A DNA stretch of 64,000 nt from Anaeromyxobacteraceae bacterium (GTDB taxonomy: Bacteria; Myxococcota; Myxococcia; Myxococcales; Anaeromyxobacteraceae), in assembly GCA_047602405.1 (NCBI GenBank), contig JASGHJ010000002.1, positions 448,001 to 512,000 on the forward strand. The letters run 5' to 3'. How positions within the stretch are numbered: position 1 is the stretch's first letter; the number at the start of each line of letters is the position of its first letter. Below are positions 30,860 through 36,611 of the stretch, piece after piece. The notes beneath the pieces were generated by a model. It did no database searches. It was not told the DNA's origin and saw nothing but the letters and a program-made list of their open reading frames with translations. Both the position numbers and the translations under genes were made by a program.

Positions 30860-32242
30860 ATGAACGCCCTCCTCGCGCTCCCCTTCACGATCGTCTGCGG
30901 GGCCGTGGCGCTCGCGCCCGTCGCGGCCCGCGCCGAGGGCCCGGACCTCGGCGCGCGCGCCGTGCGGGTCGAGGGGCTCACGCTCGCCGACTGCGTCGCC
31001 CGCGCGCTCGAGCGCAACGGCCAGGTCGCCGAGCTGCAGGGGAAGGTGCGGGAGTGGGAGGCGAAGGCCGCCGAGGCCCGCTCGGTCTACTACCCGAAGC
31101 TCACCGCCACCGCGTTCGGCGCCCCCATCTACGCCGTGAAGGGCGACCAGCGCACCCTCGACGTGCACCGCGACTGGTCGGACTGGGGGCCGTACCTCCG
31201 CTTCGACGGGCTCCTCACCCAGCCGCTCAGCACCTTCGGCCGCGCCGAGGCCGGCGAGGACGCGGCCCGCGAGCGGGCCGCGGTCGAGCAGGGCGCGCTC
31301 GAGCTCGCCCGGCAGAAGGTCGCGCTCGACGTGCGCCGCTACTGGCTCCTCCACCTCTACGCGCGCAGCCTGCAGCCGCTCCTCGACTCGACCGCGAAGA
31401 CGCTCGGCGAGGCCCGCGCGAAGGCGAAGGAGCTCCAGGCGGAGGATGCGGCCTCGGTGTCGCTCGTGGACCTCATGCGGCTCGAGGTCGGCTGGGCGGA
31501 GCTCGAGAAGTACCGGGTGCAGGCGGAGATTGGCGCGGGCCTCTCGCTCGCCGCGCTGAAGCAGGCGATGGGCCTGCCGCCGGAGGCGCCGCTCGTGCTC
31601 GCCGACGCCGTGCTCCCGGCGGTGCCGCCGGAGCCCCTGCCGCCGCTCGAGGAGCTCGTGCGGCTCGCCCGCGAGCGCCGCCCCGAGGCGGCCCAGCTCG
31701 CGCACGGCAGGCGCGCCGCCGAGAGCCTCGCCCGCGCCGAGGCGAAGGCGGACCTCCCGGTCATGGCGCTCGTCGGCCAGCTCCAGGCGAGCTGGACGCC
31801 GAACCGCACCGACGCCGAGAACCCCTACGCGAACGATCCCTGGAACGACCTCTACGGCGGGGTCGCGCTCGCCTTCCGCTTCGACCTCGACCCGGCCCGC
31901 TCGCACGCCCGCGCCGAGGGCGCGCGCAGCCTCGCCGCGCAGGTCGAGGGCCTCGCCCGCGTCGCCGCCACGGGCATCCCGGTGGAGGTCCGCAAGGCCC
32001 GCGACGAGGCCGACCAGGCGGCCCGCCTCGTCGCCATCGCCGACCAGGGCTCCGCCGCCGCCAAGCGCTGGATGGTCTACGCCTCCACCGCCTACGCGAC
32101 CGGCACCGGCGAGACGAAGGACCTCCTCGAGGGCGTGGCGGCGTACGCGCAGACGCGCAAGGGCTACCTCGACGCGCTCCTCGCCTACCACACCGCCCGC
32201 GCGCAGCTCGACCTCGCGACCGGCGCGCCTCCAGGCCGATAG
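30860..32242 (+). CDS. TolC-family outer membrane protein
   Basis: Signal peptide, LTLADCVARALERN, YYPKL, LTQPLSTFG, long helices, AQLDLATG end. Confidence 0.88.
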   Translation: MNALLALPFTIVCGAVALAPVAARAEGPDLGARAVRVEGLTLADCVARALERNGQVAELQGKVREWEAKAAEARSVYYPKLTATAFGAPIYAVKGDQRTLDVHRDWSDWGPYLRFDGLLTQPLSTFGRAEAGEDAARERAAVEQGALELARQKVALDVRRYWLLHLYARSLQPLLDSTAKTLGEARAKAKELQAEDAASVSLVDLMRLEVGWAELEKYRVQAEIGAGLSLAALKQAMGLPPEAPLVLADAVLPAVPPEPLPPLEELVRLARERRPEAAQLAHGRRAAESLARAEAKADLPVMALVGQLQASWTPNRTDAENPYANDPWNDLYGGVALAFRFDLDPARSHARAEGARSLAAQVEGLARVAATGIPVEVRKARDEADQAARLVAIADQGSAAAKRWMVYASTAYATGTGETKDLLEGVAAYAQTRKGYLDALLAYHTARAQLDLATGAPPGR

Positions 32243-32619
32243 ACCTCCTCCTCCTCCTTCCTGGTCTCCCCCTCCGTAGGCATGCGTGTCCGTGGGAGCC
32301 AAACGGGCCTCCGCGACAGCGCTTGCTCGGACGGGTTTGAGACGGAAGAGATCGCCGGAACCGTTGCCGTTCCACGGCGGTGATCGTGCAGCACGCCTGC
32401 GGACCATGTGCGCGTGACGACGCCGTGCGCTTCGCGCACGTCGCCGTCCTCGCGCGATGGTTCCTTGGCCTGCAATGCGAGATGTGGTGGCGGTACCTCG
32501 CCCGTCGCTCGCTGCGCGCTGCTGCGGAGGCCCGTTTGGCTCTCGGGCGGAGTGGACGGCGGTGCGGCCGTGACTGCTGGGTGGCTGGAGATGAACTGAT
32601 ATGGTTGGACCCGTCAACG

Positions 32620-32655
32620 AAGCCGGCCCGGTCGCAGGGTCGGCTTTTTCGTTTC
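32620..32655. terminator. Hairpin at the IS downstream end
   Basis: AAGCCGGCCC...GGGTCGGCTT followed by TTTCGTTT on the plus strand. Confidence 0.6.
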
Positions 32656-32656
32656 T

Positions 32657-32867
32657 GCGTTCGGGCGGCCAAGGCGGTGGTCGACCTGAACTAGAGCGAC
32701 GGCGGATCAGACTGATATTCGCGGGTTGGGTACCGCATGACCTGAATCCGTCGGGGGCTGCCTCGGTCTAACAGCGGGCATCAGGCTTCACGGCCCTGCC
32801 CATAGTTCATACGAGGATTCCCCTTTGGGCCGGACCAAGTCGTCCACCGCCCTCGCCGCCCGAACGC
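32657..32867 (-). ncRNA. Bridge/seek-type guide RNA of the IS
   Basis: 29-bp closing helix (32657-32685 with 32839-32867, 3 mismatches) enclosing two stem-internal-loop-stem domains whose loops match the flanks and the IS end. Confidence 0.82.
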
Positions 32868-32874
32868 GTCACAG

Positions 32875-33969
32875 CTACGCCTTTAGGAGTTGTGGCTGGC
32901 GCCCGATGGCCCAGACGAATCCCGCCAACTCGCGCGCGATGGCAACGACGACGCGGTTCTTGTTCATCCCGCGTCCCGTGAGCTTCCGATAGCGACCGCA
33001 GAGCCGCTCCTGGGCACGCCAGGCGATTCGCAAGACCTCCTCCGACAAGCCTCGACTTCTCTTCCTGAGGGCAGGGCTGTTCGCTGCTCGGTACCGGTAA
33101 GCCCAGGCGGCCTCGACGAGAATGCGCCGAGCGTGGCCGTTCCCGGCGCGTGTGATTCTCCCTTGCTGCCGAGTTTCTCCGCTCGAGTGTTCCGAGGGGA
33201 CGAGGCCGAGGTAGCCCATCAGCTCGGGGGCAGTGGCGAACCGGTCCAGGTCGCCGAGCTCCGCTGCGAGCACCGTGGCCGTGATGAGGTTGACGCCGCG
33301 TAGCGACTGTAGCGCCTTCACCAGGGGCATCCGGCTCCAGCTCTCCACGAGCTCCTCGATGCTGCGGGTATGCCGGCGAACCCTCTCCCCCACGTCTTCC
33401 ACCGTCTTCAGGTAGTCCTCGAGGACCCGTTGCTGCGCCTCGTGCTCGAAATGCTGGACCCGAACCCACGCCAGGTGGTCGCGAGTCCACCGTGTCTTCC
33501 CTGTCCAGCGCCGCCCATGACGGAGAAGGAACTTCCCGAGCTGGTGACGGGCTACGCGCTCAGCCTTCTTCGCGGCATCTCGCGCGCGCTCGAGATCGCG
33601 CATGGCCTCGGTGGCTTCGTCGGGCACGTGGACTTCGGTCAGGTCTCCAGACCTCAGAAACCGGGCGAGCTTCACGGCATCCCGCCGGTCGGTCTTGACG
33701 CGATCGCCGGCCTTCATAGGCACCAACGAAGGCGCGACCACGACGCATTCGACGCCGCCGGCGTTGAGCGCTCGGTAGAGCCCGAACCCTGTTGGACCAG
33801 CCTCGTAGCAGCATTTGATGGTACCGAGCCGTCGCAGGCGCTTCAGCAGTGCCGCGGTGTCGTTGGCGACGACCGCCAAAGCGCTCGGCTCTCCCCGGCC
33901 GGGCTCAGCGACCGCGATGGCGATGCTGTCTGCGTGGACGTCGAGACCGACGAATCGTACGCTCTCCAT
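32875..33969 (-). CDS. IS110-family DEDD transposase/recombinase (364 aa)
   Basis: VGLDVH, CYEAGPTG, VKTDRRDA, GLVPSEHSSG, GRITRAGN, AIARELAGFVW; GGAGG RBS. Confidence 0.96.
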   Translation of the reverse strand: MESVRFVGLDVHADSIAIAVAEPGRGEPSALAVVANDTAALLKRLRRLGTIKCCYEAGPTGFGLYRALNAGGVECVVVAPSLVPMKAGDRVKTDRRDAVKLARFLRSGDLTEVHVPDEATEAMRDLERARDAAKKAERVARHQLGKFLLRHGRRWTGKTRWTRDHLAWVRVQHFEHEAQQRVLEDYLKTVEDVGERVRRHTRSIEELVESWSRMPLVKALQSLRGVNLITATVLAAELGDLDRFATAPELMGYLGLVPSEHSSGETRQQGRITRAGNGHARRILVEAAWAYRYRAANSPALRKRSRGLSEEVLRIAWRAQERLCGRYRKLTGRGMNKNRVVVAIARELAGFVWAIGRQPQLLKA

Positions 33970-34502
33970 GGTTGGACCCGCCTCCCGCTGTGGCTCTGCG
34001 CCGTGGGGTTTCGCAGCTTCGCGGAGTAACCCACGTTCGCGTGACAGCGGGTCCAACCATTCTGTCTAACGGTGGAGCGAAGGCGCCTACGGAGAGAGAA
34101 GAACGGCATCACCGTCACCGCTCGTGCGTCAGTCTCTCCGCTGCCGCCTCATCACCATCAGTTCAGCACTTGCTACCCAGCATCTACGGCCGATCTCAGT
34201 GCAATGCATCCGTGGGCGAGACGTGCCCCCGCAGCGCCGGCCGGCGGAGGTCGGGCTCTCCACGTGTCCAGTATCTCAGCGAATGCAGGCCAAGGGATGT
34301 GGGCGTGTGACGGCATGGCGCGCGCAGCGCGCTGTGCCGTCACGCGCAACTCAACCGCAGGCCTGCCGCGGCCTGAACGATCGCAGCGGCCCCGGTCCCG
34401 GGCGTCTGTTCCATACACGGACCGACGCAGCCGGCCGGCGTCGCGGGGGCGCGTCGAGCCCCCTCGGCACCGCACCTCCCTCGAGCCTGGAGGAGCGTGA
34501 GG

Positions 34503-36611
34503 TCAGTTGCTGGGAGCCGCCGCCGGCACCGGGAAGCCGCGCTTGCGCATGAGCGCCGCGATGCCCGGGTCCTTGCCGCGGAACGCGCGGTAGCCCTCGT
34601 CGGGATCGACGGTGTTGCCCGCGGAGAACACGTGCTGCTTGAGGCGGGCCGCGACCGCGCGGTCCCAGGGGCCCTTCGCCTCGGTGAAGGCCTCGTAGGC
34701 GTCGGCGGAGATCGTGTCCGCCCAGAGGTAGCTGTAGTAGCCCGCGGAGTAGCCGTCGCCGGTGAAGAGGTGGTTGAACTGCGGGAGGCGGTGGCGCATC
34801 ACGAGCTCCCTGGGCATGCCGAGGGCGGTGAGCGTCTCCTTCTCGAAGGCCGCCGGCTCCACCGGGCCGGTGGCGAGGTGGGCCTTCATGTCCACGAGCG
34901 CGGAGGAGAGGTACTCGAGGGTGGCGAAGCCCTGGTTGAAGCGGGAGGCGCGCTGGAGCTTCTCGAGGAGCGCCTTCGGCATGGGCTTCCCGGTGCGGAA
35001 GTGGACCGCGTGGCGGGAGAGGATCTCCGGGGTCTCCAGCCAGCGCTCGAGGAGCTGGGAGGGGAACTCGACGTAGTCGTTCGGGACGTTCGTGCCGGAG
35101 AGGGTGGGGTAGGTGACGTTCGAGCAGAGGCCGTGGAGCGCGTGGCCGAACTCGTGGAAGAGCGTCTCGGCGTCGGTCCAGGAGACGAGCACCGGCTCGC
35201 CGGGCTTGCCCTTCACGAAGTTCGAGTTGTTCGAGACGATGGTGGTGATCTCGCGGTCGAACCGCTCCTGGTTGCGGTACTGGCTCATCCACGCGCCGGA
35301 CTGCTTGCCCTCGCGCGCGTACGGGTCGAAGTACCAGAGCCCGACGTGCTTGCCCTTCGCGTCCTTCACCTCCCAGACGCGCACGTCGGGGTGGTAGACC
35401 GGCAGCCCCTTCACCGGCGTGAAGCGCAGCCCGAAGAGGCGGTCGGCCACCTCGAACATGCCCTCGCGGAGCTTCTCGAGCTGCAGGTAGGGCTTCACCT
35501 CGTTCTCGTCGAGGTCGTAGCGGGCCTTGCGGACCTTCTCGGCGTAGAAGCGGTAGTCCCAGGGCTCGATGGTGATTCCGGCCTTGTCGGCGTCGGCGAC
35601 CTTCTGCATGTCGGCGACCTCCTCGCGGACGCGCGCCACCGCGGCCGGCCAGACCGCCTCCATGAGCGCCATGGCGCGCTCGGGGGTCCGGGCCATCGAG
35701 TCCTCGACGCGCCAGTGCGCGTGGGTCGGGTAGCCGAGGAGCCGGGCGCGCTCCCCGCGGGCCTGGAGGATCTCGGCGATGACCGCCTTCGTGTCGTGCG
35801 CGTCGCCGTGGTCGCCGCGGGTGACGAAGTTGCGCCACACCTTCTCGCGCAGGTCACGGCGGGACGAGAACGCGAGGAACGGCTCCACCGACGAGCGGGT
35901 GTTCGCGACGAGCCACTTCCCGGGCTGGCCCTTCGCGGCCGCGTCGGCCGCGGCGGCGGCGCGGTAGGACTCCGGCAGCCCGTCGAGGTCGCTCGCCTCG
36001 AGCACCGTCGCCCAGCCGGCCTCGTCGGCGAGGACGTCCTGGGCGAAGGTCGTGTAGAGCGACGCGAGCCGCTCGTTCAGCGCCGCGACCTTCTGCTTCG
36101 TCGGGCCGTCGAGCCGCGCCCCGGCCCGCACGAAGCTCGTGTACCAGCGCCACGCGAGGCGGCGCTGCTCGGGCGAGAGCGCGGCGCGCGCCTGGTACAC
36201 GGCCGCGACGCGCGAGAAGAGCCGCTCGTTCTGGTAGAGCCGGTCGGAGAAGGCGGCGAGCTTCGGGGCGAGGTCCCGCTCGACGGCCTGGAAGTCCGGG
36301 GTGGAGAGCGTGCCCGACCAGACGCCGAACACCGAGGAGACCTGGTCGAAGGTGCGGCTCGAGCGCTCGAGCGCGGCGAGCGTGTTCGCGAAGGTCGGCG
36401 CGGCGGGGTCGGCCGCGATCCGCTCCTGGTTCGCGAGCGCCTCGGCCATCGCCGCCTCGAACGCGGGCGCGAAGTGCTCGACCTTGACCGCCGCGAAGGG
36501 CGGGACGCCGCCGTGAGGGCCTGACCATGGGGCGAGGAGCGGGTTCGTCACGGGGGCCTCGGTGCCGGCGAGGGTCGCGGTGAGGAGCAACCCCAGGGTG
36601 AAGGTGGTCAT
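34503..36611 (-). CDS. dcp: M3-family metallopeptidase (peptidyl-dipeptidase Dcp-like)
   Basis: NPLL, PWDYRFYAEK, KQSGAWM, FHEFGHALH, VEFPSQ, GYSAGYYSYLWA; signal peptide. Confidence 0.92.
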   Translation of the reverse strand: MTTFTLGLLLTATLAGTEAPVTNPLLAPWSGPHGGVPPFAAVKVEHFAPAFEAAMAEALANQERIAADPAAPTFANTLAALERSSRTFDQVSSVFGVWSGTLSTPDFQAVERDLAPKLAAFSDRLYQNERLFSRVAAVYQARAALSPEQRRLAWRWYTSFVRAGARLDGPTKQKVAALNERLASLYTTFAQDVLADEAGWATVLEASDLDGLPESYRAAAAADAAAKGQPGKWLVANTRSSVEPFLAFSSRRDLREKVWRNFVTRGDHGDAHDTKAVIAEILQARGERARLLGYPTHAHWRVEDSMARTPERAMALMEAVWPAAVARVREEVADMQKVADADKAGITIEPWDYRFYAEKVRKARYDLDENEVKPYLQLEKLREGMFEVADRLFGLRFTPVKGLPVYHPDVRVWEVKDAKGKHVGLWYFDPYAREGKQSGAWMSQYRNQERFDREITTIVSNNSNFVKGKPGEPVLVSWTDAETLFHEFGHALHGLCSNVTYPTLSGTNVPNDYVEFPSQLLERWLETPEILSRHAVHFRTGKPMPKALLEKLQRASRFNQGFATLEYLSSALVDMKAHLATGPVEPAAFEKETLTALGMPRELVMRHRLPQFNHLFTGDGYSAGYYSYLWADTISADAYEAFTEAKGPWDRAVAARLKQHVFSAGNTVDPDEGYRAFRGKDPGIAALMRKRGFPVPAAAPSN

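Follow-up and report, generated by a model that had tools for sequence, protein, structure and literature searches.

The question raised by this locus is whether the non-coding RNA predicted downstream of the recombinase gene of an IS110-family insertion sequence (IS) reads both the site at which the element lands and the end of the element itself, or the landing site alone. The element lies within the window, by which we mean the whole 64,000-nt stretch of DNA analyzed here. For IS1111-type elements, bispecific and target-only RNAs are described differently in two 2024 reports (PMC11187229; PMC11208160), and the donor loop and handshake-like positions presented below bear on this distinction. 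In the present element, the guides fit both the insertion site and the right end of the element and covary with them, and the element probably moves as a complex of recombinase and RNA, the loops of which would read the target and the joined ends. The coordinates of all features are collected in Table 1.

Table 1. Features of the insertion sequence, its predicted RNA, and the surrounding repeat (window coordinates unless a contig is named).
Feature	Position	Strand	Remarks
Insertion sequence	32596..34067	-	1472 bp with CT core counted at both ends; common boundaries in four copies
IS110-family DEDD recombinase, 364 aa	32875..33969	-	PF01548 and PF02371; D10, E56, D94, D97, S263-G264
Left subterminal inverted repeat, 13 bp	34048..34060	-	After 7-nt extension 34061-34067
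Right subterminal inverted repeat, 13 bp	32601..32613	-	Followed by 3-nt extension 32598-32600, then core
Third, internal repeat copy	33968..33980	-	Over start codon; predicted pairing with left repeat hides start region
-35 hexamer	32612..32617	-	With -10-like hexamer 34059-34064, promoter with 17-nt spacing only in circle
Predicted bridge/seek RNA	32657..32867	-	Two guide domains enclosed by an interrupted 29-bp helix
Target guide 1	32803..32810	-	Complementary to core and five flank bases 32591-32595; covariation at 32806-32810
Target guide 2 (GUUAG)	32768..32772	-	Complementary to core and three flank bases 34068-34070 (+ strand); covariation at 32770-32772
Handshake-like dinucleotide after target guide 2	32766..32767	-	Matches donor left end
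Partial second donor guide (GUC)	32739..32741	-	Complementary to 3 nt of left end
Donor guide	32712..32718	-	Identical to right end plus core
Handshake-like base after donor guide	32711..32711	-	Matches first target base beyond core
Terminator-like hairpin and T run	32619..32655	+	Pattern match only; faces inward from right end, antisense to RNA
Repeat arm bearing target at inner end	32270..32597, on to 34068-34076	+	From repeat search
Second, inverted arm of the pair	34152..34478	-	Equivalent site has two mismatches and is empty
Second IS110-family element, copies	C1:164238-165200, C1:1073760-1074722, C1:1256789-1257751, C2:3207121-3208092		From genome search

The preliminary description placed the element at 32596..34072. 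Its start holds, but the true end is 34067, and bases 34068-34072 are target flank. Under the no-duplication convention (Siddiquee 2024, PMC11187229), the IS covers 32598-34067, the CT at 32596-32597 being counted as target. The recombinase scores 254 bits against NF033542 (cut-off 140), and an alignment places D10, E56, D94, D97, and S263-G264 at the catalytic positions of ISCro4 and IS621. The traits of the IS110 family found here are a DEDD RuvC-like domain plus a Tnp domain with the SG motif, as well as site- and orientation-specific insertion with a shared core of at most 2 nt in all four copies. Those of the IS1111 group are subterminal repeats of 11–13 bp with 7/3-nt extensions and a long downstream non-coding region (274 nt from the gene through the repeat, against 91 nt on the upstream side). 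The RNA also has the order that defines this group in PMC11187229, a complement of the top strand followed by a match to the bottom strand. The same genome contains four copies of a second, distant IS110-family element with an open frame of approximately 474 aa.

The 6.16-Mb genome (74% GC) carries four full copies of the element with 99.86–100% identity, which differ from the window copy at 0–2 of 1472 bases. All of them are inserted in a single orientation at a single site with 11–13 nt in common. Removal of the IS restores ATGAA-CT-AACGG, as had been proposed, and each of the four copies proved to sit at a guide-matching site. The 9-nt and 11-nt target strings obtained by in-silico removal occur exactly four times genome-wide, and all four occurrences are occupied.

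For the comparison with related elements, we used a pool of 190 homologous loci (L001-L110 and L129-L208), of which 155 contain a near full-length gene. Ends could be assigned in 124 of these 155 by a rule that is blind to the RNA but requires the left end to have AG and the right core to have A; the other 31 full-length loci gave no ends under this rule. Matches at the core positions are partly built into the rule and were not counted as evidence. Removal of duplicates and loci with short flanks left 112 insertions and 79 distinct RNA cores, which we divided by end sequence into four groups that are working labels and not a tested phylogeny. The significance of covariation was estimated with 2,000 within-clade permutations per position.

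Covariation between guide and flank, suggested earlier as a check, is present at eight target positions across the 79 cores. Positions 32806-32810 are complementary to flank bases 1–5 on one side in 67, 69, 58, 60, and 45 of the 79 elements, where 37, 34, 26, 33, and 26 matches are expected, and positions 32770-32772 match flank bases 1–3 on the other side in 77, 75, and 52 elements (66, 39, and 24 expected); at each position, the permutation count was 0 of 2,000. An unbiased scan of 7,620 RNA-DNA position tests returned predicted guide-flank pairs, all in register, as its seven best within-clade z-scores (7.5–10.6, compared with a 99.5th percentile of 3.8). Among 39 disjoint nearest-neighbor pairs, picked without the guide columns, there are 128 cases at the eight positions where the guides differ; both flanks track their own guide in 81 of them and the partner's guide in one. 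Relatives with 83–84% identical proteins likewise have different flanks, each tracking its own guide bases. Poor self-matches were also found, with four of the 79 elements fitting their own flanks at only three of the seven tested positions and two at only two. A target loop in which both guides covary with the target is expected of a bridge RNA, and the predicted RNA has one.

The two guide strings of the preliminary description were retained in part. AUGAACU (32804-32810) is present, but its 5′ A matches the flank in only two of the four copies. Within CUGUUAG (32768-32774), the GUUAG portion is supported, but 32773 and 32774 do not covary: matches number 30 of 79 against 24.9 expected at 32773 (147/2,000 permutations) and 24 of 79 against 18.7 at 32774 (127/2,000), and own-guide tracking in the nearest-neighbor pairs was seen at only 4 of 32. 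The one mismatch counted earlier falls at 32773 and would form a U-G wobble. As additional guide positions, 32773-32775 and 32811 were rejected, showing no excess matches. Because 32773 and 32774 show no clear excess, the target supported by these comparisons is about 10 nt long (five bases, the core, and three bases).

Many alphaproteobacterial loci (L020, L035, L040, L041, L066-L070, L073, L175, and L206) have a longer common right flank that continues past the guided bases and that may be an IS5-like end, which suggests that these relatives target the end of another mobile element. In seven others (L053, L056, L060, L075, and L078-L080), the two junctions do not have the same second core base. 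This base agrees with the target guide, and the donor guide has a G throughout (wobble), as would be expected if the right core came from the target and were not truly duplicated.

As for the RNA itself, all strings and helices reported for it, including the three loop strings, are present, and the target-domain stems CCUCG/CGAGG and GGGCA/UGCCC are recovered in the predicted fold. The minus strand of 32657-32867 folds with a predicted energy of -114.9 kcal/mol (z = -6.35), and none of 200 shuffled sequences was equally stable. The closing helix does comprise 29 bp but is interrupted (13 + 10 + 6 bp). In the alignment of the 79 cores, pairing at the 24 named pairs is retained in 93% of cases, a level reached by none of 500 shuffles and compared with 35–51% in slid controls, and 11 of them show compensatory change. 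The closing helix has compensatory changes in 13 close relatives, and 17 of 53 predicted pairs do so overall. The fold of the donor domain is as conserved as that of the target domain. An Rfam search over 32100-34600 gave no relevant match (single match, E = 0.66). The terminator-like hairpin beside the RNA would stop transcription entering antisense to it; most close relatives have a similar hairpin.

The string AUAUCAG in the donor domain, described earlier as identical to the IS end, was confirmed as such: at each non-core position, 78–79 of the 79 homologous cores match their own right end. At 32716, all 79 match against 73.5 expected (0/2,000 permutations). The guide follows singleton end variants (L004, L047, L082, L083, and L084), and its covariation with the end consists mostly of between-group differences plus a few singletons. 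The other strand of the donor domain had been said to match the opposite end only partly, and the match indeed amounts to 3 nt. The GUC register is found in 22/22, 16/16, and 6/7 members of three end-sequence groups, is one base over in the fourth and largest group, and shows no excess over the within-clade expectation in the 79 cores. When measured against the donor loop of a bridge RNA, with two guides for both donor halves, one strand of the present loop is 7 nt long and the other 3 nt, without within-clade excess.

This weak second strand invites a reading in which a short RNA with the target domain alone is the working guide, the ends are read mainly by the protein at the subterminal repeats, and the donor domain belongs to a precursor or acts in just one step, e.g., excision. 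The 13-bp subterminal repeats are long enough to be read by the protein, and for ISEc11 a 70–100-nt seekRNA with target matches alone is reported to be sufficient for transposition (PMC11187229). ISEc11, however, represents a different branch, being approximately 20% identical to ISCARN28. Since the donor guide matches the right end almost without exception and tracks singleton end changes, and since the folds of the two domains are equally conserved, we regard this reading as unlikely.

Handshake bases have been described for IS621 (PMC11208158). In the present RNA, 32767 matches the third left-end base in all 79 elements (77.0 expected within the clade, 40.6 overall), an agreement that is strong between groups and reached by 50 of 2,000 permutations within groups. 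Base 32711 agrees with its target base in 48 of 79 against 41.8 within the clade (11/2,000 permutations), a modest excess. By their correspondence with the IS621 positions, 32767 and 32711 may have a handshake role. The second handshake positions, 32766 (61 of 79 matches) and 32710, were rejected, having no excess matches.

A dispersed repeat provides the target site, which occupies the inner end of an arm. We found 31 arms of approximately 330 bp at 16 loci, comprising 15 inverted pairs and one single arm. Each arm is an imperfect palindrome with similar ends, and the spacers within pairs measure 23–229 bp. Each copy of the element resides inside one arm of its repeat, at the inner-end target. 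Among 29 arms, two truncated arms without an inner end being left out, those with the perfect 11-mer are occupied in 4 of 4 cases and those with one to six mismatches in 0 of 25 (Fisher p = 4e-5, which is overstated because the arms are kin). Three of the empty arms differ by a single mismatch, located inside the covarying positions. Since the tail of the element matches the 10-base site at four copies and covaries across related elements, the RNA likely steers insertion into one family of long repeats. A metagenome contig of run X1 contains the left end with three differences over 255 nt and the same 7-nt flank, followed by a different continuation that resembles the repeat spacers, which fits a further insertion into the same repeat family (one short contig, depth 3.5).

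Common flanks could also arise if the element were copied together with a mobile repeat, by gene conversion between arms, or from a site preference of the protein alone, the RNA match being incidental here. The repeat is itself dispersed at 16 loci, two of the occupied loci resemble each other in their arms (90%) and spacers, and an orthologous empty site was not found in the relatives checked, including the closest one, G010. However, the occupied arms are only 64–90% identical to one another; the insertions are younger than the divergence of the arms because the IS copies are about 99.9% identical. In addition, the 83–84% identical relatives occupy different flanks that track their own guides. 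We consider co-copying or its variants very improbable. That the loop matches are merely chance 7-mers in a GC-rich hairpin region has a negligible likelihood, for although a match of seven bases is short and covariation failed at two of the originally proposed positions, the scan, the permutations, and the nearest-neighbor pairs refute it, the seven best of 7,620 tests all being guide-flank pairs in register.

Among 40 relatives, the repeat has a strong match in one (G010) and short, weak matches in nine more. The flanking efflux and peptidase genes are approximately 1.6 kb apart in G010, and the part that was read (L214:2294-2900) is without the repeat; it contains another gene, TetR-like by eye. 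A search for a Y1 transposase as the mover of the repeat gave weak matches, with one of six over the cut-off. The idea that the inner ends are attC sites was dropped for its inexact fit to the motif. As regards a neighboring gene that might read into every copy, the gene upstream of the recombinase is on the same strand in all four copies, as found by a crude ORF caller with unreliable distances.

Joining the ends in silico brings TTGACG and CAGAAT together at a spacing of 17 nt. The -35 sequence (TTGAC/TTGAA) is found at the equivalent place in 77 of the 79 elements, and no consensus promoter was found in the linear element. Contigs from four runs with distant and patchy coverage were without the circle junction and are uninformative.

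The third repeat copy may link this junction to translation. When a transcript contains the left repeat in full, the start region is predicted to be covered by a 15-bp helix; the predicted unpaired probability of -12 to +3 increases from 0.01 to 0.29 for a transcript that begins within the repeat, the start site being an assumed one. We compared 76 distinct leaders, requiring at least 7 nt of complementarity between left repeat and start region. Such complementarity is found in 20/20 and 32/33 members of two groups and in 1/16 and 0/7 of the other two, against a background of 1.3% of 11,509 coding windows, and from group to group it changes along with the sequence of the repeat. For the group of 33, the ribosome site is predicted to stay mostly paired in the short junction transcript, and a constant damper is therefore as plausible as a switch in these models.

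From the family literature, we infer that the element forms circles, that gene and RNA are transcribed together from the junction (PMC11187229), and that strands are exchanged at the core. Read-through transcription would likely supply a little RNA and recombinase; low-level read-through RNA that supports excision has been reported for IS621 (PMC13626964). The element would then excise as a circle, and the joining of its ends would create the -35/17/-10 promoter driving both gene and RNA. One loop would read the target of approximately 10 nt, and the second the joined ends of the excised circle. At the 2-nt core, strands would be cut and exchanged by S263 together with the four DEDD residues, aided by the handshake bases. 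With a guide that spells the inner-end motif of a lineage-specific paired repeat, the element would find intergenic landing sites. The hairpin between left repeat and start codon would keep recombinase translation low, above all in read-through transcripts.

We tentatively extend this model to the whole branch, which could be a fully bispecific bridge system in the IS1111 layout, with a working donor loop, IS621-like handshakes, and circle-coupled translation, although we hold this wider proposal to be somewhat doubtful. The coupling would rest on the left subterminal repeat, which would act as an anti-start strand and be truncated by use of the junction promoter. If true, the branch would offer a ready-made test case for bridge versus seek RNAs, in which single-mismatch discrimination is readable from the element's own genome.

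Reading the locus as an intact IS110/IS1111-type recombinase element with readable guides, as the preliminary description did, is supported by the sites of the copies and the covariation of guides with flanks. Judged by its sequence, the element is intact and recently active. It provides a clean worked example and a candidate tool from a genome with 74% GC, in which natural covariation fixes the guide register, five bases on one side and three on the other, and the three empty one-mismatch sites constitute a built-in specificity control.

The element is a member of a known IS110 branch that is already in print (ISSfr2 and ISCARN28) and leaves the known picture of the family unchanged; the earlier statement that the system class had been described extends to the clade, i.e., ISSfr2, ISEc45, and ISCARN28. 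What the present analysis adds are the candidate handshake-like positions and the predicted, covarying hairpin between left repeat and start codon. We found no description of such a repeat-over-start-codon hairpin, and no experimental study of the ISSfr2/ISCARN28 branch, in the open-licence literature. In a plasmid collection, the nearest named elements are ISSfr2 and ISEc45, with 54% and 44% identity to the recombinase, respectively; identity to ISShdy1 is 25%. ISCARN28 has 50% identity with ISSfr2 and 44% with ISEc45 (source data of PMC11187229), through which we placed it in the clade; it is labelled IS1111 even though it is approximately 21% identical to IS1111A and 19% to IS110 (PMC11187229). 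The ISSfr2 locus (L209) has a like end layout and RNA scaffold, as judged by eye. The present element differs from these three in its guide and target and in the internal repeat over the start codon. Bridge RNAs, including target and donor pairing, have been predicted for six elements, of which ISCARN28 is one (Durrant 2024, PMC11208160); the ISCARN28 model may already cover the handshake or donor-loop points. The same report predicts bridge RNAs in 93% of IS1111 elements.

The guide order, junction promoter, and 7/3 extensions have been described for IS1111 (PMC11187229). As in the ISEc11, ISKpn4, ISPst6, and ISPa11 elements of that report, the present element has a 3′ non-coding region, 11–13-bp subterminal repeats, 7/3-nt extensions, a candidate junction promoter (here in silico), and a top-strand complement that precedes the bottom-strand match. 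ISPa11 also targets a dispersed repeat (REP). Compared with these IS1111 seekRNA elements, the protein is distant (25% identical to ISShdy1) and longer (364 vs. 330–350 aa), and a covarying donor-matching loop is evident.

With IS621 and ISCro4 (PMC11208160; PMC11208158; PMC13626964), the element has in common the DEDD residues and serine, the CT core on the + strand of the window, a predicted RNA with two loops and with handshake-like bases that follow the complementary guides on their 3′ side, and natural targeting of a repeat, even if the protein similarity is weak (E ~3e-8). Unlike in these two elements, the RNA lies downstream of the gene and not upstream, the subterminal repeats are long, and the second donor strand is 3 nt. 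ISPpu9 (PMC8450116) is another IS110-family element located in repeats with a leader structure that limits translation, as predicted here. Its leader of approximately 245 nt hides the ribosome site of the transposase and is opened by an antisense RNA, whereas the pairing partner in the present element would be the left subterminal repeat itself.
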